Source of the DNA: Gemmatimonadota bacterium
GTDB lineage: Bacteria; Gemmatimonadota; Gemmatimonadetes; Gemmatimonadales; GWC2-71-9
Direction: 5' to 3'
DNA length: 42,157 nt
Assembly (NCBI GenBank): GCA_039586365.1
Contig: JBDHKN010000041.1
Location: forward strand, 1 to 42,157
Position numbers and translations under genes: made by a program. The notes beneath the pieces are model-generated. The model had not been told where the DNA came from. It did no database searches and was given only the letters and a program-made list of their open reading frames with translations. Within the stretch, counting starts at the first letter, position 1; every line of letters begins with the position of its first letter. Positions 3,590 to 42,157 of the stretch are shown piece after piece.

Positions 3590-4261
3590 ATGCAGCGATC
3601 ACTCGTGGCAGTGGGAATTGGCTTGTTAGTGCTCTCTATTGGAGGATACGCGTCGATGCGATCGGTCTCGGGGCCACAAGGCGGCACGCCCCAGGATGGG
3701 TTCGAACAGATCCTGAAGGAGCGCAACGGCCGTTACACCAAGCACGGCTGGAACCACTACGGTCCCGGCTACTTCGACTTGGATCCGGAGACAGGCGTAC
3801 TCACGTCTCACGGGGGGATGGGGTTGTTCTGGTATGCGGAGAAACAATACGGCGACTTCATACTCGAACTCGAGTTCAAGTGCGCCAATGAGCGCACGAA
3901 CTCGGGGGTCTTCTTGCGAGTACCAGGGGTCCCGGCAAGCGACGACTACATCTATCACAGCTTCGAGATTCAGATCGACGACGCGAGCGAGGGTGTCCAC
4001 CACACGGCCGCCGTTTATGATGCGGAGGCTCCAGCGAGAAGCGCCTCGAATCCGCCGGGCGAATGGAACCACTTCCGAATCGCCTTCGTGGGCACGCGGA
4101 TAACCGTCGACCTGAACGGGGAACAGGTGGTCGATTGGGAGGCGGAGCCGCGTGGGAAGGTCGCGGACTTCGCCGAGCGAGGTTACATCGGCCTACAGAA
4201 TCACGACGACGTGAGTCCGGTGTATTTCAGGAGTATTCGGATCAAGGATTTGTCTCAGTAG
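3590..4261 (+). CDS. DUF1080 / 3-keto-disaccharide hydrolase family protein, exported
   Basis: N-terminal signal or anchor; motifs YGDFILELEF, NSGVF, EIQIDD, GEWNH, GYIGLQNH and VYFRSIRIK. Confidence 0.9.
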   Translation: MQRSLVAVGIGLLVLSIGGYASMRSVSGPQGGTPQDGFEQILKERNGRYTKHGWNHYGPGYFDLDPETGVLTSHGGMGLFWYAEKQYGDFILELEFKCANERTNSGVFLRVPGVPASDDYIYHSFEIQIDDASEGVHHTAAVYDAEAPARSASNPPGEWNHFRIAFVGTRITVDLNGEQVVDWEAEPRGKVADFAERGYIGLQNHDDVSPVYFRSIRIKDLSQ

Positions 4262-30347: not shown

Positions 30348-31586
30348 TCAGCGAGGTTCGAGCCTTCGGAGCCGGCCTGTGATCGCGCGCAGCCGCTCGG
30401 ATTGAGGAACCGGTCTCGCGAGTTCGAGTTCGCGTGCTTTTCGGAGGCTCCCCACCGCCGCAGCCGTGTCCCCCGCCATCTGTTCCAGCCGCCCCAGGGC
30501 AAGGTAGGCCACCGAGGAGTGCGGGAATTCCCTGGCGGCGAGTCGCGCGACCTCTAGTGCGGGCCCGATGTCGGGGAGAGTGAGTGACAAGTAGCGGTAC
30601 ACGGAGAGCGGGATGTCCACGGGGTAGCCGCAACGCCCGGAGAGGTCCTGGAAGAAACCCTCCACTGCCGTCAGACCATCCTCCAGCACCGAGGTCGGGA
30701 CAACCCAGTCGTCCCACACGGCAGTAAGGCCGCCGAAGTAGACCTTGTATGGAACATGACCGTGGTCCTCTGCGGCAATCTCGCTGAAGGTGAAGTCGAG
30801 GTTCGACGGGCCCCGCTTGGTGAGTAGCGGTACGAAGTTGCGCCGAACTGCACCGTCCATATCACCGCCCTCGAGGGTACCGAGCGTGATCACCAGGGGC
30901 TTTGCGGACAGAGCGCCTCCGTTTCCGAGGCGTTGCCGCGTCGCCTTCACCACAACGGAATCATCCCACCACAGGCTCGGGCTGATCGCCAAGTAGCGGG
31001 AGAAAAGGTCCGGCTTCTCGAGGTATGCGTGCACGGTGAACAGCCCGCCAAGTGACCACCCCGATAGAGTGCGGTGTGGGTGAGCACGGTACCTCGATTC
31101 GACCAGGGGAAACAGTTCCTGCTCGAGGAAGTTCTGGAACACCTCCGCTCCGCCACTGGTTGGGAAGCTGAGCCGGCCTTGGGCTTGTTCAGGGGCGTAG
31201 GTAGGCGTGTAGTCCCGTTCCCTGTCGACGTTGGGGATCCCGACCACAATCATCTCAGGAACCGGATGTTGCCCTGCCTCGTACCCCAACTCGGAGTGGA
31301 ACTGAACGGCAGAGGACGCCTGCTGGAAGAAGTACTCTCCGTCGAGCACGTATAGGACAGGGTACTTGCGAGTCGTTTGCTCGTATTCCTCGGGTACCCG
31401 CACGAGTATCGTGCGTTCTTCACTCAGTACTGCGGGGCGAAAGGTGATCTTCTCTGTACCCTGCACCTGCTCCACCGCTTGCTCGGTTTGGGCGGTTGAG
31501 AGCCCCGGTGTGATAAGGGCAAGGGCGCTCGACAGGACGGTCAAGCGCAGCAACGTGGGCTTCATTCGGTTCCTACGGTCGGTCAT
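30348..31586 (-). CDS. Exported alpha/beta-hydrolase esterase (IroE/Fes-like) with TPR-like tail
   Basis: YPVLYVLDG, IVVGI, R.RDYTP, GGAE.F, nucleophile elbow GWSLGG, SPSLWW and EDHG motifs; signal peptide. Start is ATG 31586 (GGAGG) or 31565. Confidence 0.87.
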   Translation of the reverse strand: MTDRRNRMKPTLLRLTVLSSALALITPGLSTAQTEQAVEQVQGTEKITFRPAVLSEERTILVRVPEEYEQTTRKYPVLYVLDGEYFFQQASSAVQFHSELGYEAGQHPVPEMIVVGIPNVDRERDYTPTYAPEQAQGRLSFPTSGGAEVFQNFLEQELFPLVESRYRAHPHRTLSGWSLGGLFTVHAYLEKPDLFSRYLAISPSLWWDDSVVVKATRQRLGNGGALSAKPLVITLGTLEGGDMDGAVRRNFVPLLTKRGPSNLDFTFSEIAAEDHGHVPYKVYFGGLTAVWDDWVVPTSVLEDGLTAVEGFFQDLSGRCGYPVDIPLSVYRYLSLTLPDIGPALEVARLAAREFPHSSVAYLALGRLEQMAGDTAAAVGSLRKARELELARPVPQSERLRAITGRLRRLEPR

Positions 31587-31668
31587 CGCTCCTCCCGCAA
31601 AGGGCAGGGCAATTGATCGAACCTCCGTGGTCAACAGCGCGGCGGCGCCTCGAGAGTACGCCATGGAC

Positions 31669-32313
31669 TCACCCACCGATGTGGGCTCCCAGAAAAACGG
31701 CGACCGGGTTGATTCGGACGTCCTGCTGTATGCCACCGGGCGGCGCGGTGAGTTCGATCTGCGTGTATTTGAGTCGCAGGACCTGGACGCCCCCGTCCAG
31801 GGCTATGGGTGCGAGTAGCGGGACGCGAATGCCGGCCATTCCCGAGAGGTAGAAGCCAGTATTGGTCATGCCGCCCGTGGCCTTCTGGCCACCTACTCCT
31901 GCCGCCAGGTAAGGCTCTGGAGATCGTCCCGACTTGGCCAGCGGGTAGAGGACTGCCGACAGGCCGCCGAGGATGAGCCTCAGGTCTTCGTCTTGGGCAG
32001 GTGCGACCTGCGTGAACTGTTGGGGCAAGACGCCGACGGTACCTCGCACGGCGAGGTGCTTCCTCCTCAGTTCCAGGCTTCCCTGGAACAGCATCCGCTC
32101 CTCGAAAGTGCCTCGGATCGTTTCCCAGGTAACTCCGCCTGCGGCGGAGTAGATCGGGTGTGAGATACTCCAATCCGTCCCGTTCAAGACGATGGCCGTC
32201 GAGAGCTGCGCCGAGAACCTCCACGAATCCGCACCCGCTGCTTGAGCGGATGTTTCACTCGTCCACACCAGGCAAATGACGGAGGCTATGATGGGGAGTT
32301 TTCCGAGCAGCAC
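31669..32313 (-). CDS. Exported protein, probable small outer-membrane beta-barrel
   Basis: GTG 32313 after GGAGA; signal peptide; amphipathic strands including PYLAAGVG. Confidence 0.65.
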   Translation of the reverse strand: MLLGKLPIIASVICLVWTSETSAQAAGADSWRFSAQLSTAIVLNGTDWSISHPIYSAAGGVTWETIRGTFEERMLFQGSLELRRKHLAVRGTVGVLPQQFTQVAPAQDEDLRLILGGLSAVLYPLAKSGRSPEPYLAAGVGGQKATGGMTNTGFYLSGMAGIRVPLLAPIALDGGVQVLRLKYTQIELTAPPGGIQQDVRINPVAVFLGAHIGG

Positions 32314-32534
32314 AGTCTCTCCGTTGCGGTTGGCGGGCAGCGTTCCGACCGGTCGAGCGAAACACGCTCTGCTTCGCAATCGGAGGCGTCCCAGTGAACA
32401 CGTTGCTGGGCGCTTTCTCTACCAACCGGACGCCGTGCGGTTGTTGGCTGACGAAGTCGCTGCAGCAACATGTTGGAGTTCGCCGGCGGACCCCCGTTGC
32501 AGCCTCTTGAAACCTTTTCTCCAACATCAACGTC

Positions 32535-32557
32535 TTACATATATGTAATTGACATAT
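32535..32557. promoter_or_regulatory. Overlapping palindromes upstream of padR copy 3
   Basis: Perfect 14-bp palindrome TTACATATATGTAA (32535-32548); ATATGT-N5-ACATAT (32541-32557) overlaps TTGACA (32549-32554). Confidence 0.65.
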
Positions 32558-32583
32558 GTTATTCATCGAGTGAAAGCTTCGCT

Positions 32584-32943
32584 ATGGCCAATATTGACAA
32601 TGAGTTACAGGATCCAGCCGAGTTTCTGCCCCTGAGCCCGCAGGACTTCCAGGTGCTCATGGTGCTGTTCGACCAGCCACTGCACGGCTACGGAATCGTC
32701 AAGGCTGCGACCGATGGTTCGACCAAGCCGGTGCTCGACCTGGGATCGCTGTATCGCATCATCAGCCGCCTGATCAAGCGGGGTCTCGTCGTCGCCGCGC
32801 CGGTCGAGCAGCCGAGCTCGAAACGGCAGCGCCGCTACTATCGAGCGACCGACCTGGGGAGACGGGTGGCGCGGGCAGAGGCTGTCAGACTGCGCGAGCT
32901 GCTCCAGTCCGAACAGGCGGAACTGCTGTGGGAGAAATCGTGA
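32584..32943 (+). CDS. PadR family transcriptional regulator
   Basis: LPLSPQDFQVL, HGYGI, GSLYRII.RL...GLV and RRYYRATDLG motifs; start ATG 32584. Confidence 0.9.
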   Translation: MANIDNELQDPAEFLPLSPQDFQVLMVLFDQPLHGYGIVKAATDGSTKPVLDLGSLYRIISRLIKRGLVVAAPVEQPSSKRQRRYYRATDLGRRVARAEAVRLRELLQSEQAELLWEKS

Positions 32944-35672
32944 AGCGGCACCCGGGCACGCACGGGTTGAGTGGGGCCTGGATCCGAACGCTGATCGGAA
33001 CCTTTCCGGCCGATTTCAGGCGGGACTACGGCCGAGACTTGCTGGGCGCGTTCTTGGACCAGAGAGACGACGCCGTGAACGCAGCACGCTCGAGGCTAGT
33101 GGCCGCAGCGACAGTGGCGCTGATTACTTTCGCGACGAGTTGGCGCGTTGTGCGGGCTGGGATTGCTGAACGGCGATCACAGGCAAGCAAGAGACAGCCG
33201 GTCGAACGACAGCGCAGGAGAGAACCCATGCTGACAACCATGCTGGCAGACCTGAGATACGCAGTGCGCGGACATCTCAGACGGCCGGGCTTCGCCGTGA
33301 TCGCGATCGGTACGCTGGCACTGGGGATCGGTGCCAGCACGGCCATCTTCAGCGTGGTGAACGGTGTGCTGCTGCGTCCACTGCCGTACCAGGATTCGGA
33401 GCAACTCACCTCGATTCAGGTAAACAGTGGCATCGGTGCGAGTGATGGCTTCTACGACTTGTCGGAGCCTGAATTCCTCGACTTCGGCACGCAGATCTCG
33501 TCGTTCTCGCAGGTGGCCGGTTACAGCGGTACAGAGGTCACGCTGGGCGACTCCGTCGCGGCACGCCGCATTCGTATGCTGCGAACGACCGCAAACCTGT
33601 TCCGGTTGCTCGGGGTGAGTCCCCTGATCGGTCGCACGTATGCCGCCGACGAGGATAAACCGGGCGGTCCGCGAGTTGTCGTGCTGAGCTATGGCATGTG
33701 GCAGAGTGAGTTCGCTGGCGATCCGGCTGTAGTCGGCCGGTCGGTGATCATTGCCGATCAACCGGTGCCGATTGTAGGTGTAATGCCCGCCGGTTTCGAG
33801 TTTCCCACCCCCGGTGTGGATGCCTGGGCTCCGCTGCAACTCGACCGCGAGAGTCCCTGGGAACGCAACAACCACTATCTGCCAACGATCGCACGGTTGG
33901 CTCCGGGTGCCACGCTCGAGACCGCCCAGAACGAGATTGACGTGCTCGCAGCACGATCTACTGCGGATTACCCCAGCTACTATCCCAATACGGGCCTGCG
34001 AGTCAGGCTGCAGTCGTTCCAAGACGCCATCGTCGGCAACGCCAAGACCCCAATGTACATACTGTTGGGTGCCGTGGGTTTCGTATTGCTCACGGCGTGC
34101 GTCAACGTTGCCAACCTGCTACTGGCGCGCGGTGAAGTCCGCAAACGCGAGATCGCAATCCGCGCCGCCATTGGGGCGTCAGGTGGCCGAGTCACCCGTC
34201 AGCTGCTGACCGAGAGTTTCTTGCTGGCGGCAGTGGGAGGAATCGCCGGATTGGTGGTTGCCGTAGTCGGTGTCGATGCGCTGCTCGCGATGGGTCCGAA
34301 CAGCGTGCCCCGCCTGGGCGAAATCCGCATCGATCGGTTGGTACTGGTCTTCTCCGTCGCGACCGCGATCGTGACGGGTTTGTTGTTTGGAGTCGTTCCG
34401 GCACTGCATGCCACCAGGCACGATGTACAAGAGGTACTCAAGGAGGGTGGGGGTGCTCGCGGCGGCACTCGTTCGGGACATGCGTTGCGGCGTTTCCTGG
34501 TCGCGACTCAGGTCACTTTGGCCGTGGTATTGGTCACCGGTTCCGGACTCATGCTGCGCAGCGTGCTCAACATGTACAACGTGGACATGGGTTTCGACAC
34601 GAAGAACGTACTCACGTTCCGCCTCAACCCGTCGCCCAACAAGTACGACTCTCAGGAATCGCGGGTAGCCTTCTACCGTGAGTTGCTGCAGCGCCTTAAC
34701 ACTCTGCCCGGTGTAATCTCGGCGGGTGCGACCTATTCGTTGCCACTAACCAGCGGAAGCAACAACTGGTCGATCATCATCGAGGGACACCCCGTCGCGA
34801 ACGTCGGTGAGGCGCCGGCAGATCTGGTGCAGCGTGTCACTCCGGAATACTTCGACGCGCTCGGACTGACACTCCTGCGGGGCCGGCTCTTCACTGCCGC
34901 AGACGATGCGGGGTCGCCACCGGTGGTCGTCATCACCGAGAGTATGGCTGAGAAACACTGGCCGGGTGAGGATGCTATAGGTAAGCGCATGAAGGTGTTT
35001 GTCGACGGGTGGCCGTGGATCGAGGTGATCGGAGTGGTGAAAGACGTGCGCCACCAGGCCCCAAACCAAGATCCCCGCCCCCGTTGGTTTGTGCCCCATG
35101 CGCAAGCCTACGTATCGGCCTACTCGTCACCCTTGCCGCTGACGCTAACAGTCCGCTCAGACGCCGACCCGACACTGCTGATGGGAGCGATCAGGACTCT
35201 CATCGCGGAGTTCGACAGCAGTGTCCCGATTTCCAATATCCAGACCATGGAGCAGGTCTTCGCCAGCGCCTTGGGAGGCCAGCGGTTCGTGACTACCGTG
35301 CTGTCTCTGTTTGGACTGCTGGCGTTGTTCCTGGCGGTGGTAGGAGTCTACGGGGTCGTCTCTTATGCAGTGTCGCAACGAACCCACGAGATCGGTCTCC
35401 GCCTGGCGCTCGGTGCCGCGGGCAAGCGTGTGCTGGTCCAGGTAGTTCGTGACGGCCTCATACTCTCACTCATCGGGGTGGCAGTAGGGCTGATGGGTGC
35501 TGTGGCGCTGTCGCGCGGATTCAACTCGCTGGTGTTTGGCATTACGCCGACCGATCCAGTAACGTATGCGGGCGTGGCCATCGTATTGGTGATCGCGGCA
35601 GTCGGTGCCTCGTTGATACCGGCGCGAAGAGCGAGCAGGGTGAGCCCGATGGTGGCATTGCGAGACGAGTAA
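32940..35672 (+). CDS. ADOP-type duplicated MacB/FtsX ABC permease (orphan)
   Basis: GTGA overlap; DLRYAVR, TLALGIGASTAIFSVVNGVLLRPLPY, ACVNVANLLLAR, QRTHEIGLRLALGA and PARRASRVSP motifs. Confidence 0.93.
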   Translation: MKRHPGTHGLSGAWIRTLIGTFPADFRRDYGRDLLGAFLDQRDDAVNAARSRLVAAATVALITFATSWRVVRAGIAERRSQASKRQPVERQRRREPMLTTMLADLRYAVRGHLRRPGFAVIAIGTLALGIGASTAIFSVVNGVLLRPLPYQDSEQLTSIQVNSGIGASDGFYDLSEPEFLDFGTQISSFSQVAGYSGTEVTLGDSVAARRIRMLRTTANLFRLLGVSPLIGRTYAADEDKPGGPRVVVLSYGMWQSEFAGDPAVVGRSVIIADQPVPIVGVMPAGFEFPTPGVDAWAPLQLDRESPWERNNHYLPTIARLAPGATLETAQNEIDVLAARSTADYPSYYPNTGLRVRLQSFQDAIVGNAKTPMYILLGAVGFVLLTACVNVANLLLARGEVRKREIAIRAAIGASGGRVTRQLLTESFLLAAVGGIAGLVVAVVGVDALLAMGPNSVPRLGEIRIDRLVLVFSVATAIVTGLLFGVVPALHATRHDVQEVLKEGGGARGGTRSGHALRRFLVATQVTLAVVLVTGSGLMLRSVLNMYNVDMGFDTKNVLTFRLNPSPNKYDSQESRVAFYRELLQRLNTLPGVISAGATYSLPLTSGSNNWSIIIEGHPVANVGEAPADLVQRVTPEYFDALGLTLLRGRLFTAADDAGSPPVVVITESMAEKHWPGEDAIGKRMKVFVDGWPWIEVIGVVKDVRHQAPNQDPRPRWFVPHAQAYVSAYSSPLPLTLTVRSDADPTLLMGAIRTLIAEFDSSVPISNIQTMEQVFASALGGQRFVTTVLSLFGLLALFLAVVGVYGVVSYAVSQRTHEIGLRLALGAAGKRVLVQVVRDGLILSLIGVAVGLMGAVALSRGFNSLVFGITPTDPVTYAGVAIVLVIAAVGASLIPARRASRVSPMVALRDE

Positions 35673-35786
35673 CTGCGGCCGCTCGTCAGTCTTCAATCGT
35701 CAATCGTGGGGCAGCTACCGTCGCTGTCCTGACTTTCCGCCTTGCGCCGCCTGCGGCCCTAACCGGTCCTCACACCCTGTTCTCGG

Positions 35787-37355
35787 CTAATTCCGTCCCT
35801 TCATCTCCGGCCACAACTCTTGAAAGGTGCGGTGGGGCTGCCGGGCCACGTAGATCGTCTGATCGCGCTGCTCGGTGACTCCGTACGGATGTCCCACCGT
35901 GACGGCTGGCTCGATCAACTCGAACCGGCTGGCCAACGACTCCCGGCTGAATCCGACTGCAATTGTGACGTCACCGGGCTTGTCGCCCGGTCCGTAGAAC
36001 CAGTAGGTCCCGACATAGGCGATGGCTTCGGGCAGCCCGTAGCGCCGTCCGTAGAAATCGATGGCACCGGCCTCGCCATAGTTGGAGGCCCACAGCACCG
36101 CCCGCCCACGTTCATTGACGGGCAGCCCGTGGTAGACCTCGCTTACGGCTTTAACCAGGTCCTGCCACCCGAGCATGTCCGCGTAGTCCTGGGGCAGGCG
36201 CTCTACCGCTCCCACGTTGGTGGTCACTGCGGATTCTCCTCCAATTCGGGCTGCGTATGATGCCATCGCAGGCGGAGACAGGATGGGGAGTCCGAGCGGC
36301 CAAGTGACCGCTGCAAAGCCAACCACCGAGAGCAACACCACCGTACGGATTACTGCCAGGCCTCGTGGACGCTGCATCTGTTGGAGCAGAAGCGCACCAG
36401 CCGCATAGGCCAGAGGGTACACGGGAGCCAGGTAGTAGTCCTTGGCCTTGAACACTAGCAGCGACACGAAAGTGAGGGTTACGACCCACCCGAGCATCCG
36501 AAAGCGCGCCATCGATCTGCCGAGCAGGACGAAGCCAACTCCTGCCACAGCCAGCAAGGTGGTCGGACCCAGAGTGAGCTGCCCCATAACGAATTGCCAC
36601 GCCGTCACACGTACCAGCTGGTTCTCCCTCAGGTCGGCCAGGTAGCTCAACACCGGGAAGTCCAAGGCGATCTGCCCCACGATGCTAGGACTCCCAATCG
36701 CCAGTGCGAGGGTGAGTGCCAGCCAGGGACCTGCCTTGCGTAGCCATGAGCAGCGGTACGTGAGAAACAGGGCGGCCGTCACTGTCACGCCGAACACGGC
36801 GACAGTGAACTTCGTGAGCAGCCCGATGCCGGTTACTACGCCTAGGGCACTCCACCAGCGCAGTTCATCGGTTGCAGCGACTCGCGCAAGCGAGTAGAAC
36901 CCCGCCGTCCACACGAACTGGTCCACCACGACGGGCTGAAACAGTACACCGGCGCGGAGAAAGAGCGGGTTGGCGAGCACGCAAAGCGCGGCCGTCCCTT
37001 GTGCGAAACGGCCACCCCCTAGTTCGCGCGCGATCAGTGCTGCCAGAACTACCGTCGCCGTGCCGAACGCTGCGGGGACCAGTCGAATAGCGAAGAGCGA
37101 GTCGCCCAGCACAGCGCGGACCAGCTGGGCGAGCAGCGCCATGGCGGGTGGGAAGTCCATGTGGAACAGCGCCAGGTGCTCTCCCATCGCGAAGTAGAGA
37201 AACTCATCGCGGTGGAACTCATATGGGGTGACGCTACTGGTGAAGACGTGTAGCCCGAGCTTGACGGCAGCCAGGGCTACGACGAGCCCGACGGCCAGGT
37301 TCGGACGGTCTGGGGCCTCAAGCGGGATCGGTCCAGTGCTGCCCAGCGTTCGCAC
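35787..37355 (-). CDS. Integral-membrane glycosyltransferase, GT39/ArnT-like (GT-C fold)
   Basis: FHRDEFLY, DFPP, LLTKFT, KDYYLAP and NYGEAGA motifs; polytopic; AGGAGG before GTG 37355. Confidence 0.85.
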   Translation of the reverse strand: MRTLGSTGPIPLEAPDRPNLAVGLVVALAAVKLGLHVFTSSVTPYEFHRDEFLYFAMGEHLALFHMDFPPAMALLAQLVRAVLGDSLFAIRLVPAAFGTATVVLAALIARELGGGRFAQGTAALCVLANPLFLRAGVLFQPVVVDQFVWTAGFYSLARVAATDELRWWSALGVVTGIGLLTKFTVAVFGVTVTAALFLTYRCSWLRKAGPWLALTLALAIGSPSIVGQIALDFPVLSYLADLRENQLVRVTAWQFVMGQLTLGPTTLLAVAGVGFVLLGRSMARFRMLGWVVTLTFVSLLVFKAKDYYLAPVYPLAYAAGALLLQQMQRPRGLAVIRTVVLLSVVGFAAVTWPLGLPILSPPAMASYAARIGGESAVTTNVGAVERLPQDYADMLGWQDLVKAVSEVYHGLPVNERGRAVLWASNYGEAGAIDFYGRRYGLPEAIAYVGTYWFYGPGDKPGDVTIAVGFSRESLASRFELIEPAVTVGHPYGVTEQRDQTIYVARQPHRTFQELWPEMKGRN

Positions 37356-37586
37356 AAGGGAACCTCCTGTTGGGTAGCCCAACTCATAACTCAACGGCTG
37401 CAGGAGCTTGTGGGTTTCGCCGCTGTTCGATCGTGCGATTGCTCGAATGTTCGCCTGTCCCTCAATGACTCCGTGGTGAGCCGATGGGCATGATGGTATC
37501 TGTACGGCTAGTTACCCCTACAGTTTGTCCCTATCTTGCAGGTCCACGCTCCCATCACGGCTGAGCACTGCAGGCGGATACACCAC

Positions 37587-38585
37587 ATGGCGGAGAACCG
37601 GACAGACAATCGTCACCGTCGAGACGAGTACGTTGCGCGCATCAACCGCGTTGTCGATTACATCGAAGCGCACATCGATCGAGATCTCAGTCTCCAGACC
37701 TTGGCGCGGGTCGCCAACTTCTCGCCCTGTCACTTCCACCGCGTCTTCGGCGCGATGATGGGTGAGACGCTCAGCCACTTCATTCAGCGGCTCCGAGTGG
37801 AACGTGCGGCGAACATGCTCCTGCTAAACCCCAAGAGGTCGATAACCGGGATTGCTTTGGATTGCGGTTTCTCCGGCTCCGCACCCTTCGCCCGGGTGTT
37901 CCGGGAGACGTTCGGGATGAGTGCCAGCGAGTGGCGGCGCGGGACACAGCGGGTAGATCGCAAGATGAGTGAAGCGGACCGCAGGCTGGGGCAAACCGAC
38001 AGCAAGGACCGCAAAGACTTCGCGGTAGCAGTGGAGTACAGTTACGGGACACAACTCATGCAACGATGGAGGATCGCCATGAACGCCGAGAGCCCGCTGA
38101 CCGCCGAAGTCACCGTGAAGGAGATCCCGGAATTCCACGTCGCCTACATCCGGCATGTAGGTCCCTATGCCGGAGACGCGGCACTGTTCAAGCAGTTGTT
38201 TGACAAGCTCTTCACGTGGGCGGGGCCGCGCGGTCTGCTGCGCTTCCCCGAGACGAAGTTGCTGTCGGTCTACCACGACAATCCGGAGATCACGGACGAG
38301 ACCAAGCTCCGCCTCGACGTGTGCATCAGTGTTCCGGAGAACACTGAGGTGGATGGAGAGGTCGGCAAGATGGCCATCCCGGCCGGACGCTACGCGGCGG
38401 CGCATTTCGAGATCGCGCCCGACCAATACGGAGATGCCTGGAACGCGGTGTTTGGCGGTTGGTTACCGGAGAGCGGCTATCAGCCCGCCGACAGCCCGTC
38501 CTTTGAACTCTACCTCAACAACCCGGAGGAGCACCCGGAAGGCAAACACATCTTCGACATCTGCGTTCCGGTCAAGCCACTGTAG
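37587..38585 (+). CDS. AraC family regulator with a C-terminal GyrI-like ligand-binding domain
   Basis: RINRVVDYI, FSPCHFHRVF, IALDCGF...FARVF HTHs; then VAYIRHVGPY, YHDNPEIT, WLPESGY and FELY. Confidence 0.93.
   Translation: MAENRTDNRHRRDEYVARINRVVDYIEAHIDRDLSLQTLARVANFSPCHFHRVFGAMMGETLSHFIQRLRVERAANMLLLNPKRSITGIALDCGFSGSAPFARVFRETFGMSASEWRRGTQRVDRKMSEADRRLGQTDSKDRKDFAVAVEYSYGTQLMQRWRIAMNAESPLTAEVTVKEIPEFHVAYIRHVGPYAGDAALFKQLFDKLFTWAGPRGLLRFPETKLLSVYHDNPEITDETKLRLDVCISVPENTEVDGEVGKMAIPAGRYAAAHFEIAPDQYGDAWNAVFGGWLPESGYQPADSPSFELYLNNPEEHPEGKHIFDICVPVKPL
37956..38081 (+). promoter_or_regulatory. Putative intragenic promoter: three 21-bp direct repeats, -10 box, SD and in-frame ATG
   Basis: Repeats start at 37956, 37977 and 37998 (core GCArG-N4-G-N2-AA); TACAGT at 38037-38042; GGAGG at 38068-38072; ATG at 38079. 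Confidence 0.55.
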
Positions 38586-38788
38586 CCGACAGGTGGAAGT
38601 GACAACGGGGCGTGCAGCTCCAGTCGGGCGCATCCCCCATTGGCAAGTCGCTGCCAGCGAGATTTCGCGGTCCAATCCCTTGGGTGGCTGCAATCAACGA
38701 TCACCGCGAATCCGAACGCGGCATGCGAGCCAGAGAGACGTTGACGAAAAGAGAAACTAGCGTCCCGTGGATGCCTTGGAGGGACACC

Positions 38789-40369
38789 ATGAAGAGTGAC
38801 CGTCACCTTATGAGGACCTTGCTGCTCGGACTCGCCGCAGCATGCGCGGGCTGCACCCAGGCCCCGCGCGAGCCGCCCAACATCATTTTCATCTTTGCGG
38901 ACGACCACGCCACGCAGGCGGTGGGCGCATACGGGAGCCGACTCGCATCGCTAGACCCGACGCCGAACATCGACCGGTTGGCTTCGGAGGGGATGCTCTT
39001 CCACTCGGCCTTTGTAACGAACTCGATATGCGCACCAAGCCGGGCCGTGATCCTGACGGGGCAACACAGTCACCTGAACGGTGTGCCCACGAACGCGGAG
39101 CGTTTCGATTCGACCAAGGTGACCTTCCCGCAACTGCTCCAGGACGCCGGGTACCAAACGGCGATCGTGGGTAAGTGGCATCTCAAGAGCGAACCGGTGG
39201 GCTTCGACTATTGGGAAGTGCTTCCGGGGCAGGGTGTATACTACAATCCGGACTTCCGGACGCCCGATGGCATGGTACGGGATACCGGGTACGCCACCGA
39301 CCTCATCACGGACAAAGTGCTCGACTGGCTCGAGACCGGCCGTGACCCGACCCGCCCTTTCCTGCTCATGTACCAGCACAAGGCGCCCCACCGGGAGTGG
39401 ATGCCCGGTCCCGACCATCTCTCCAACTATGCCGACGTGGAGATCCCGGAGCCGCCGACGCTGTTCGACGACTATTACGGGCGCACGACGGCTGCACGGA
39501 CCCAGGCGATGTCGATCGATGTCGACATGCGGTTCGGCTACGACCTGAAGCTATGGCCCAACACCGTCAACCCTGACGACCGCTTGAACGGGGCGGTTGA
39601 GCGGACCCGCAACCGGATGACAGAGGAGCAACTCGCTGCATGGGACGCCGTCTACGGTCCCGTGAGCGCATCCTTCAACGAGGTCTCACCCACGGGAGCC
39701 GACCTTGTCCGTTGGAAGTACCGACGCTACATGGAGGATTACCTGCGATCGATCCGCTCCATCGACGACAACCTGGGCCGGCTGTTGGACTACCTCGAGG
39801 AGAGCGGACTCGCCGAAAACACGGTGGTCATCTACAACTCGGATCAGGGTTTCTTCCTCGGTGAGCACGGGTGGTTCGACAAGAGGTGGATGTACGAGGA
39901 GTCGCTCCGCGCTCCGCTGGTCGTGCGGTGGCCGAACGTGGTCGCGGCGGGGTCGGAGAACACTGATCTGATCCAGAACCTGGACTTCGCGCAGACATTC
40001 CTCGACATGGCCGGAGTCGCGGCCCCCGAGCAAATGCAGGGCCGAAGCTTGGTGCCCCTCCTTGAGGGAGACACACCGGGCGATTGGCGTGATGCCATCT
40101 ACTACCAGTACTACGAGTTTCCCGGCGTCCACTCGGTACAGCGCCACTATGGAGTGCGCACGGACCGCTACAAGCTCATCCACTACTATCTCATCGGTGA
40201 GTGGGAGCTGTTCGATTTGGAGACCGATCCGGACGAGCTACGGAGCGTCTATGACGACCCCGACCATGTGGAGGTGCGTCGAGAGTTGGAGACTCGACTC
40301 GCCGAGTTGAGGGCCCAGTACCGGGTGCCGGAGGTGGACCCGGTACCCCTCCCGGAAGGAGTGGGATGA
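38789..40369 (+). CDS. Cys-type sulfatase (S1 family), probable lipoprotein
   Basis: [27 protein letters not shown] (CxPxR), [16 protein letters not shown] and DKRWMYEES motifs; signal peptide ending AAACAGC; GGAGG before ATG 38789. Confidence 0.93.
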
Positions 40370-40448
40370 GTCCCTAGGGGCTCATCCCGAGTTGGCAAGC
40401 GAGAAGGTCAGCGAGGGTGTGAGAGGCTGAAACCGCTGGTCCAACCGA

Positions 40449-41237
40449 TCACAACTTCAATTCTACCTGCGTAAGTCTTCTGCCGCTCTCAAAGAAACTC
40501 GCCGCCAGATCCGCCAGCACCTCGATGCACTTCTCCCCTATTGGTGCCGACATGCCGCGCGCGTCGCCGAGCACGCCGTTCGGCGTGACGCTCTTCATTC
40601 CTTCGCTGATGATGCGGTCCACTGTGTCCTGCGACAACTCGGCCACGAACCCCGCCTCGGCCAGATCTTCGCGCACCAGGTCAGGGTGGAGACAGAGCAT
40701 GATCGAGGTCTCCGCGATGTCGGCGTGACCTCCCACCCTGTCGCCAAGGCCGCATTCCTCATCCACCACTTGCTTCCAAACCCGCACCGTGCCGAGCAGA
40801 TCGGTGAAAGCCGCCACGTGGCAGTCCGGTCCCACGGCATCGTTTAGATCGCTCAGGGCACGATCGATCGGCGCGAAGTTCCCTCCATGAGTGGGTAGCA
40901 GGCAGATGTACCGGAAGCCGTGGTGTGCCAGACTAGTGCAGTAATCTCGGCATACGGCTACGAACGTCTCTTCTTTCAGAGTGAGGCTTCCCGGGAACGC
41001 TAGATGGTGTTCCGAGCATCCCACCCTGATCGTCGGTGCGACCAAGGCGTTGCCCAAGCGCCGCGCTACCTCCTCGCCGAGGCGCGTACCATGTTCGGCA
41101 TCCACGAATAGCGGTAAATGGGGGCCGTGTTGCTCGACGGCTCCGCAGGGCACCACCACGGTGGTCATCCCGGCTGCCAGGGCCTCAGCGATCTCCGGCC
41201 AGCGGAGGTGTTCGAGGAAGATGGTTTGCTCTGCCAT
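40449..41237 (-). CDS. Creatininase family amidohydrolase
   Basis: GAVEQHGPHLP..D, GCSEHH..FPG, HGGN, GHAD.AETS and NGVLGD motifs. Confidence 0.9.
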   Translation of the reverse strand: MAEQTIFLEHLRWPEIAEALAAGMTTVVVPCGAVEQHGPHLPLFVDAEHGTRLGEEVARRLGNALVAPTIRVGCSEHHLAFPGSLTLKEETFVAVCRDYCTSLAHHGFRYICLLPTHGGNFAPIDRALSDLNDAVGPDCHVAAFTDLLGTVRVWKQVVDEECGLGDRVGGHADIAETSIMLCLHPDLVREDLAEAGFVAELSQDTVDRIISEGMKSVTPNGVLGDARGMSAPIGEKCIEVLADLAASFFESGRRLTQVELKL

Positions 41238-41267: not shown

Positions 41268-42157
41268 GAGACTGTGTGAAATGTCGTCTTCCTCAGGGGC
41301 CGTTGTCCGGCTAAACGGCAGGTAGGTTGTTTTCCTTCCTGGGACCCTCCGTAGGGGCCTGGGATTGATCTTTTGCTCTTGCGGAATGCCTCCCCTAACC
41401 CAGGGCAGCGATCATCCGGGGCACACCAACAATCCGGATCACACGCTTCAGATTGTAGGCCAGAACCGTCATACTCCATTCCGTCGCGACCTTCTCGAGG
41501 CCACGCAACAGGAAGTAGCCCTGGTCCATCCACCGCTTCGCAGTGCCAAAAGGATGCTCGGCAAGCATCGCACGCTGATTCATTATCTTCGGTCGTGCAG
41601 CAAGCCGTCGCGCCATCTCCTCCAGTACAGCCTCATGCTCCCAACGCTCAATCTTGCGACCATGCCGACTACGCGTACACTGCGCCTTGATTTCACAACC
41701 ACCACAAGCCGCGGTGCGATAATGATGATACCAGCGACCCCGCTTCTCGGCTGTCGATCGATAGCTCAACACCTCGCCAGCGGGACACCGATAACAGTCC
41801 CGTGACTCGTCATACGTGAAGTCATCCTTCGTAAACAGCCCGCGCTGCCAACTGCCCGAGATCCGGCTTCGCAACCAATGGCGTCACTCCAACATCCACA
41901 CACGCCTTGATCTCTGACGCATTGTAGTATCCCCGATCCGCCACTACCGTCAGCCCTTCCACGCCTAACTCCGCCTGCGCCTTGCTCGCCATCGAGCCCA
42001 GGGCGTGTAGGTCATTGACCCCATTCGTTACTTCGTGCGCCACAATCAACTTGTGCTTCGCCTCCACCGCCGCTTGCACATTGTAGCTCACTTCCGTCCG
42101 CATCCCACTCTTCATCCGCCGACTGTCAGGATCCGTAAGAGACACCTGCTGCTCACC
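41268..42157 (-). mobile_element. IS1182-family insertion sequence (3' part; runs off the window)
   Basis: Transposase remains, plus a terminus-like sequence GAGACTGTGTGAAA at 41268-41281 (TTTCACACAGTCTC on the coding strand). The partner end is outside the window. Confidence 0.8.
41395..42157 (-). pseudogene. IS1182-family DDE transposase, frameshifted
   Basis: SLTDPDSR.M, YNVQ and VADRGY lie in one frame; F.YD...D.Y.CPAG, CxxC, EHPFG..K and AYNLKR lie in another; the frames switch near 41863. Confidence 0.88.

Follow-up and report, generated by a model that had tools for sequence, protein, structure and literature searches.

Linker codons of an AraC-GyrI regulator gene appear to carry an activator-dependent promoter and an in-frame start for a GyrI-like protein

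Introduction

Can the codons that spell the hinge of a two-domain regulator serve at the same time as a promoter for its second domain? The question is raised by a gene at 37587..38585 (+ strand) of the window, by which is meant the whole stretch of 42,157 nucleotides analysed here, from a Gemmatimonadota bacterium (contig JBDHKN010000041.1). An earlier note on this DNA had pointed to three direct repeats of 21-bp period between the AraC and GyrI-like domains, followed by a -10 element, a Shine-Dalgarno (SD) sequence and an ATG, and had proposed that the ligand-activated protein binds its own coding sequence and induces a stand-alone GyrI "sponge". In the literature covered, from which most subscription journals are absent, no AraC-GyrI gene is described as having an internal promoter or a nested isoform. 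Statements on published systems draw on passages of the papers cited.

The AraC-GyrI protein and its setting

According to Pfam and a PDB match, the gene encodes a full-length AraC(double HTH)-GyrI-like regulator of 332 aa with Rob/STM3175 architecture. The N-terminal AraC double HTH (PF12833, 73.7 bits against a cut-off of 33.6; PF00165 in two stretches) includes the AraC-type helix-turn-helix region Pfam HTH_18 at aa 39-118 (37701..37940, +), and the C-terminal GyrI-like domain (PF06445, 144 bits) covers aa 174-330. Only the AraC and GyrI-like/Cass2 families are matched; no MerR HTH and no TipAS domain was detected in the protein. The order of HTH before ligand domain is the reverse of that in AraC. 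The top PDB match of the full-length protein is 7R3W (E 1.2e-34), which is STM3175 of Salmonella (PMC10414762). RobA models gave 54 and 44 bits against cut-offs of 380 and 426, the SbmC/GyrI model (NCBIfam PRK10016) gave 81.4 against 179 bits, and the Phe/Tyr albicidin motif of STM3175 is absent, Glu307 being aligned to the Phe position of 7R3W. By these comparisons the window protein is a member of the AraC-GyrI architecture and not an orthologue of Rob, SbmC or STM3175.

A 332-aa protein with 99% identity to the window protein is present in the protein collection searched, and the full-length query retrieved 3,400 protein clusters at E values up to 0.001, some of them outside this regulator clade. 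The neighbours in the window (30348-41237) are genes for an esterase, PadR and a MacB/FtsX permease, a PMT_2 glycosyltransferase on the opposite strand, a sulfatase and a creatininase. At 41395-42157 (- strand) two overlapping ORFs in different frames resemble, as judged by eye, parts of one transposase. The flanks of the gene are common to its 89% relative, L067. A close full-length match occurs in only one of 60 related genomes, so the gene is patchy within its own group.

Elements in the linker

The linker with its boxes is about 55 residues long and holds three 21-mers starting at 37956, 37977 and 37998. Each contains a Rob/MarA-like box on the + strand: the distal box 1 (37957..37976; A site GCAA, 37960-37963), a unit that is optional across the family; the middle box 2 (37978..37997; A site GCAG, GCAA in most relatives; B site CAAA, 37992-37995); and the proximal box 3 (37999..38018; A site GCAA, 38002-38005; B site AAAG, 38013-38016), which lies over the -35 position (AAGACT, 38014-38019). 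After a spacer of 17 nt comes the -10 element TACAGT (38037..38042, +; family form TAnnnT), which encodes Tyr151-Ser152. It is followed by the SD GGAGG (38068..38072, +), which encodes Trp161-Arg162 and stands 6 nt before an in-frame ATG. From this ATG, the codon of Met165, runs a nested in-frame ORF (38079..38585, +) for a predicted stand-alone GyrI-like protein of 168 aa, the size foreseen in the earlier note for a second product; the positions it had given for the repeats, AAGACT, TACAGT, GGAGG, the 6-nt spacing and the ATG were likewise confirmed. Between the -10 and the SD there is a further in-frame ATG, Met158 (38058-38060), which is neither conserved nor preceded by an SD.

Taken alone, the elements of this gene are not beyond chance; they are far beyond chance only by way of the homologues. 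The three repeats share 13, 11 and 11 of 21 bases pairwise, and equally periodic 63-mers amount to 6.8e-4 of the genome total (about 3,700). Tandem Repeats Finder reported nothing, and a sigma-70 consensus promoter scan returned 0 sites. The -35 of this promoter is poor, the -10 fits at only 4/6 positions, and the A site of box 2 is GCAG, not GCAA.

Codon-level selection in homologues

Of 133 loci collected, 92 spanned the linker. Together with the window gene they were filtered to 67 non-redundant genes by dropping those with <33% protein identity or >=90% DNA identity; the resulting set comes from many phyla, with 33-89% protein identity to the query and GC3 from 0.16 to 0.97. Expected counts rest on how GC-matched genes use codons in their domains, conditional on the amino acid.

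At the protein level, 121 close proteins show Ser, Arg or Gly before Lys or Asn at 7-residue steps in a variable linker, and the conserved linker residues are those spelled by GCAA, TAnnnT, GGAGG and ATG, including Tyr151 (119/121), Trp161 (121/121), Arg162 (116/121) and Met165 (118/121). At the codon level, the final T of the -10 is present in 66/67 genes, across 13 amino acids, where 15.3 would be expected, and in 25/25 genes with GC3 >=0.75 (2.5 expected); the 25 GC-rich genes are uniform (25/25) at three positions, for which 2.5-3.8 would be expected. An NGC codon occupies the A site in 61/61 cases for the proximal box (21.0 expected), 64/66 for the middle box (22.3) and 52/56 for the distal box (18.9). 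Third-base A at the B site was counted in 62/63 cases for box 3 (23.4 expected) and 59/64 for box 2 (19.5); the remaining figure for the B sites is 44/59 (18.0). When third-base bias was ranked over 305 columns, the top 11 all fell in the linker, with z up to 16.4, against a maximum z of 6.0 over the 272 columns outside it. P values from such counts are overstated because the homologues are related, and the fair control is this comparison of column with column within the same genes; the signal persists on a subset of 48 genes with <68% DNA identity. Relative to L067, the linker has three synonymous-only and ten amino-acid changes in 43 codons, and the domains show the opposite balance with 65 and 26, respectively, in 289 codons.

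Box number varies among the 67 genes, with no unit in two, one in two, two in 21, three in 39 and four in three genes, and linker lengths step by 7 aa (35/28/42, 34/27/41/20 and 24/17). The 162 units compared, which were selected for GCAA, have G (0.85) and AA (0.94/0.93) one helical turn on, as G-n-n-AA. The earlier note had called for a check on whether homologues conserve the repeats as DNA or only as a protein heptad, and synonymous-site selection was found on both the boxes and the -10. Selection, as read from these codons, is thus acting on the linker DNA (boxes, -10, start-site step, SD and ATG) and not only on the protein: the codon third positions, the restriction of Ser/Arg/Gly swaps to NGC codons, the SD with its ATG and the intergenic copies described below all argue for a DNA element. 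Constraint on the protein seems to be added to this in part of the SD region: Trp161 is invariant in the 121 closest proteins, and the first T of its codon does not belong to the SD consensus.

The internal start and the predicted short product

The expectation that homologues share the SD and the start codon was borne out. An SD of at least 4 nt with an in-frame ATG or GTG is found in 63/67 linkers, against 81/757 equal-size control windows elsewhere, and the figures for an SD of at least 5 nt are 57/67 and 22/757; out-of-frame SD-start pairs occur in 9/67 linkers. Between the -10 and the GyrI domain AGG makes up 74/143 Arg codons, against 142/1142 elsewhere in the same genes. The four genes without SD and start are L039, L121, L032 and L044. 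Box and TACAAT-type -10 are kept without an SD and canonical in-frame start in L044, L108 and the Bacillus locus L219.

In 46/67 genes a pyrimidine-purine step falls 11/12 nt past the first T of the -10, against 3-22 at ten neighbouring offsets, and the start-site pyrimidine is favoured given the amino acid (42/49, 28.1 expected). An internal transcription start at 38049 (+) is therefore likely on the pattern of the homologues; 38051 is an alternative, because the base before 38049 is G in this gene. Genes with a complete 3' end give predicted short products of about 149-175 aa; seven values are lower and belong to genes interrupted by a contig end or a frame break. Among solved structures, SbmC (1JYH, E 5e-14) comes closest to the predicted short form. 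Database entries of 160-175 aa that begin at Met (93/120 matches) are mostly gene calls on short contigs and were not counted as evidence.

Type of the boxes and promoter geometry

AraC at araI1-araI2 occupies direct-repeat half-sites at a 21-bp period, the proximal one over the -35. The same period and the same placement of the proximal site are found here, so that this part of the AraC-type reading in the earlier note stands; the unit itself fits a Rob/MarA box better. AraC also differs from the window protein in its N-terminal sugar-binding dimerisation domain, its intergenic target, its domain order and its box sequence. The 20-bp box of Rob has the A site GCAC and a B site CAAA overlapping the -35 (PMC9178005), and class II boxes are forward and centred at -36 to -55 (PMC12052159). 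The linker unit has the A and B sites of a marbox/robbox, with a difference at the last base of the A site, and the proximal box is forward with its centre at about -40.5 from the predicted start, within the class II range. Class II promoters such as micF and Caf1R R3'/R4' are alike in their 20-bp asymmetric box with A and B sites one turn apart, forward, and B over the -35 (PMC9178005, PMC12052159), and in Caf1R the proximal repeat is preceded by a second one in tandem (PMC8470410). Unlike these, the linkers have GCAA instead of GCAC, two to four tandem units at 21 bp and a promoter that lies in frame inside the regulator's own gene. The comparison suggests that the linker unit resembles a class II Rob/MarA box more than araI1-I2. 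The linker appears, from its sequence, to be dual-coded, as a protein hinge and as a full sigma-70 promoter that depends on an activator and is followed by a ribosome site.

Searches with the DNA pattern

A pattern of two boxes and the -10, taken as DNA only and with SD and ATG left out, was matched in 29/401 spirochaete genomes; the reversed-pattern control matched 0. Eight of the 29 genomes were matched through a 7-base microsatellite, which fits the pattern trivially and was set aside (L259-L263, L270-L272, L285), and one through L032. The 20 non-microsatellite loci include 18 AraC-GyrI linkers, among which L278 repeats the training locus L021. All 18 linkers retrieved contain an SD with an in-frame ATG, 16 of them at 30-39 nt downstream. 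The 401 genomes of one Bacillota phylum gave nine matches in six genomes: two AraC-GyrI linkers, four intergenic or gene-end sites and three in other coding DNA. In both linkers the SD precedes ATA or TTG; L290 and L294 (1560-1610) have such an in-frame codon in place of ATG.

Orthologues at E <1e-50 are present in 46/121 genomes of the genus Vibrio. Of 31 orthologues from Vibrio, including a copy on a Salmonella plasmid and one from Aeromonas, 30 were scored; the box is present in 29/30, and SD with start also in 29/30, against 2/94 controls. The paralogous Vibrio clade (20/20 scored) has the box in 0/20 genes and SD with start in 6/20, against 18/100 controls, which is no enrichment. Supplements on transcription starts in V. 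parahaemolyticus (PMC8577284) contain no AraC/GyrI names or motif text, and their tables could not be linked to the orthologue.

The module outside linkers

A weight matrix trained without the window gene and its 89% relative gave 42.1 bits for the linker and 11.5 bits for the next site in the 5.44-Mb genome. No wider regulon was found in this genome, which is 86% complete; the linker is its sole strong site. With one mismatch allowed, the pattern gave two linkers, the L032 site and L167 in five other genomes, two of which had no match; the L167 match is probably due to chance.

In L032, from a spirochaete MAG, the AraC-GyrI linker is without boxes, -10 and Met. Two boxes, a -10, an SD and an ATG lie instead at 4075-4175 in non-coding DNA, about 150 bp after the regulator stop and before a TrmO-like (TrmO_N-domain) gene. 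In L289 (1465-1570, - strand) the final codons of an AraC gene, one whose HTH is C-terminal, contain the beginning of the boxes; the module extends over the stop, with the -10, SD and ATG of the next gene following; it is possible that L289 represents a pre-fusion state. The copies in L032 and L289 keep the same spacing before the SD and ATG of other genes. Intergenic matches of two boxes and a -10 also occur in L288, L291 and L293 (~1500-1620), with no AraC-GyrI gene within the 3-kb flank, and an SD with a start follows in L288 and L293.

At 2050-2640 of L103/L104, the AraC half is lost in L103, and the boxes, -10, SD, ATG and GyrI frame are retained; L048 (3330-3810) has a frameshift in the linker and another later, and adjoins a probable transposase. 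G208, a candidate for a split AraC and gyrI pair flagged by stop codons, proved to be an intact gene of 303 aa. A promoter for a conserved downstream operon was considered and rejected: clusters among the neighbours of the 66 non-window loci had two members at most, and the conserved SD and ATG, in frame within the gene, also speak against it.

Proposed mechanism and alternatives

Since xenobiotics are bound or destroyed by GyrI-like domains (PMC5684135, PMC10414762), the simplest purpose of such an arrangement would be a sponge that is triggered by ligand and feeds back negatively. The full-length Rob-type protein would bind within its own gene, where the 21-bp boxes run head to tail and each would take up one double-HTH unit, and the proximal box over the -35 would allow class II activation of transcription from near 38049. 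The resulting transcript would be short and have a leader of about 30 nt, and its translation from Met165 would yield the free 168-aa GyrI-like protein. A ligand, probably a hydrophobic toxic small molecule, would load the GyrI domain of the full-length protein, so that only the binding half is amplified; the free half would then sequester or shield against the ligand and turn the signal off. Class II self-activation seems the most likely mode, because the unit matches the Rob box and the proximal unit is centred close to -40.5. The existence of the internal promoter and the short product is, on the codon data, very probable, and it is probable that this protein drives the promoter as activator. 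The whole circuit is at best slightly less probable than that, since ligand gating is argued from what is known of the family. What we infer is binding of the boxes by this protein, activation and not repression, gating by a ligand, and the role of the product as a sponge.

The promoter and short protein might be real while the full-length protein represses or roadblocks transcription (negative autoregulation) or activates when free of ligand, the short protein titrating the regulator and not protecting the cell. This is unlikely. Two to four tandem sites within a transcribed region could stop elongation, and MarA activates or represses depending on box position (PMC12052159), but the fixed forward spacing of the proximal box to the -10 is that of class II activation, beside a poor -35, and the intergenic copies hold to it before the SD and ATG of other genes. 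Rather less likely is a short product that works as an enzyme (cyclopropanoid-hydrolase-like) or by target protection (SbmC-like protection of gyrase) under the same promoter logic, and not as a passive sponge. Glu307 is invariant among 68 aligned proteins, and a conserved Glu is catalytic in GyrI-like hydrolases; the same Glu is, however, widely conserved in GyrI-like proteins, including the binder BmrR (PMC5684135). Cyclopropanoid cyclopropyl hydrolases have two catalytic acids (E157/E185 in lin2189) and an aromatic cage; one invariant Glu was located here, and lin2189 is not among the PDB matches. The position of SbmC as best solved relative of the short form is offset by its NCBIfam model score, which is below the cut-off.

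It is improbable that another member of the AraC/XylS family, or a global factor, binds the boxes in place of this protein. Marbox-type sites are indeed common to MarA, SoxS, Rob and RamA (PMC12052159, PMC10268841), and similar modules stand in L288, L291 and L293, whose fetched flanks contain no AraC-GyrI gene. Nevertheless, the module travels with the gene across many phyla with no neighbour common to more than two loci, the window's own genome has no other strong site, and the L032 module stays directly downstream of the regulator. It is scarcely credible that the linker DNA now has no function of its own and is simply a protein heptad (coiled coil or repeat linker) or what is left of an old gene fusion. 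The appeal of this reading is that 21 nt equal 7 aa, that Trp161 is invariant in close relatives and that L289 hints at an origin in which genes fused across a promoter. Selection on synonymous positions and on AGC, CGC and GGC codons, whose residues are chemically unrelated, led to rejection of the heptad; a vestige would have decayed, whereas the signal persists over the whole GC3 range and in non-coding copies.

Relation to known systems

A self-activated promoter for a nested GyrI-like protein would be a variant of the TipA/NolA design of one gene and two products. TipAL/TipAS of Streptomyces lividans, cited as a precedent in the earlier note, are a regulator and a ligand-binding-only isoform made from two start codons of one gene (PMC7762955); AlbA is grouped with them here. 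The signals for such an isoform are conserved in 63/67 linkers; TipA belongs to the MerR family and has a TipAS domain, and no internal promoter is described for it in the passages covered, whereas here an AraC/GyrI gene would have a separate internal promoter. NolA is for this reason the closer precedent: the Bradyrhizobium gene has three in-frame ATGs, and full-length NolA1 controls the two shorter forms, NolA2 and NolA3 (PMC5596368). It differs in belonging to the MerR family, in its role in nodulation control, in its narrow range and in having neither a linker operator array nor a GyrI-like domain. The nolA gene reportedly has an internal promoter, P2 (Loh et al. 1999). The present gene lies outside both families, as it is not of MerR type, but would work like them.

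STM3175 (YgiV) and Rob share with the window protein the N-terminal AraC double HTH and the C-terminal GyrI-like domain. STM3175 traps albicidin, and the full-length protein gives more resistance than the binding domain alone; its authors suggest autoregulation and leave the target promoter open (PMC10414762). A full-length Vibrio homologue confers resistance without induction, which is lost with the binding domain alone (PMC10414762, Fig T legend). In STM3175 the linker comprises about 10 unresolved residues and a Phe sits at the base of the groove, in contrast to the box-bearing linker and Glu307 here, and the passages of PMC10414762 describe no internal promoter or nested product. AsfR of Aeromonas veronii is built from the same domains, and the passages of PMC12710916 mention no such feature. 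One supplement of PMC10268841 has no entry for ygiV/STM3175.

The analysis names a predicted target promoter and binding motif for a widespread, uncharacterised regulator clade, and points to a complete activator-dependent promoter kept inside coding sequence across many phyla, with a predicted second product that annotation misses. Codon optimisation or domain deletion would destroy or uncouple such a circuit. It also gives a handle on a question raised in PMC10414762, namely what promoters are recognised by AraC-GyrI proteins and what makes the full-length form protect better than the binding domain alone. A broader proposal, which we regard as evenly poised, is that in this clade the main or only target of the regulator is a marbox-type promoter in its own linker codons, that a large share of AraC-GyrI genes are one-gene detoxification circuits, that the promoter was captured by fusion of an AraC gene, its own operator at the 3' end (compare L289), with its target gene, and that other clades, the albicidin-trapping STM3175 type among them, also keep the internal start. 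If true, an overlooked short isoform may contribute to the protection phenotypes of these other clades.

Internal starts in clades without the boxes

STM3175/YgiV-type genes (L221, L227-L256), of which 28/31 were scored, do not match the strict GCAA box pattern; they have an SD with in-frame ATG or GTG at the GyrI boundary in 24/28 cases, against 14/144 control windows. Distant AraC-GyrI genes (L052-L065, L123-L137, many of them clostridial; 20/27 scored) likewise gave no strict-box match. Because both groups have SD and start without strict boxes, the short form can apparently arise without this promoter, and in such clades it may come from plain internal translation. In the distant genes an SD with in-frame Met stands at the domain boundary in 15/20 cases, and an SD of at least 5 nt in 13/20, against 2/88 controls.
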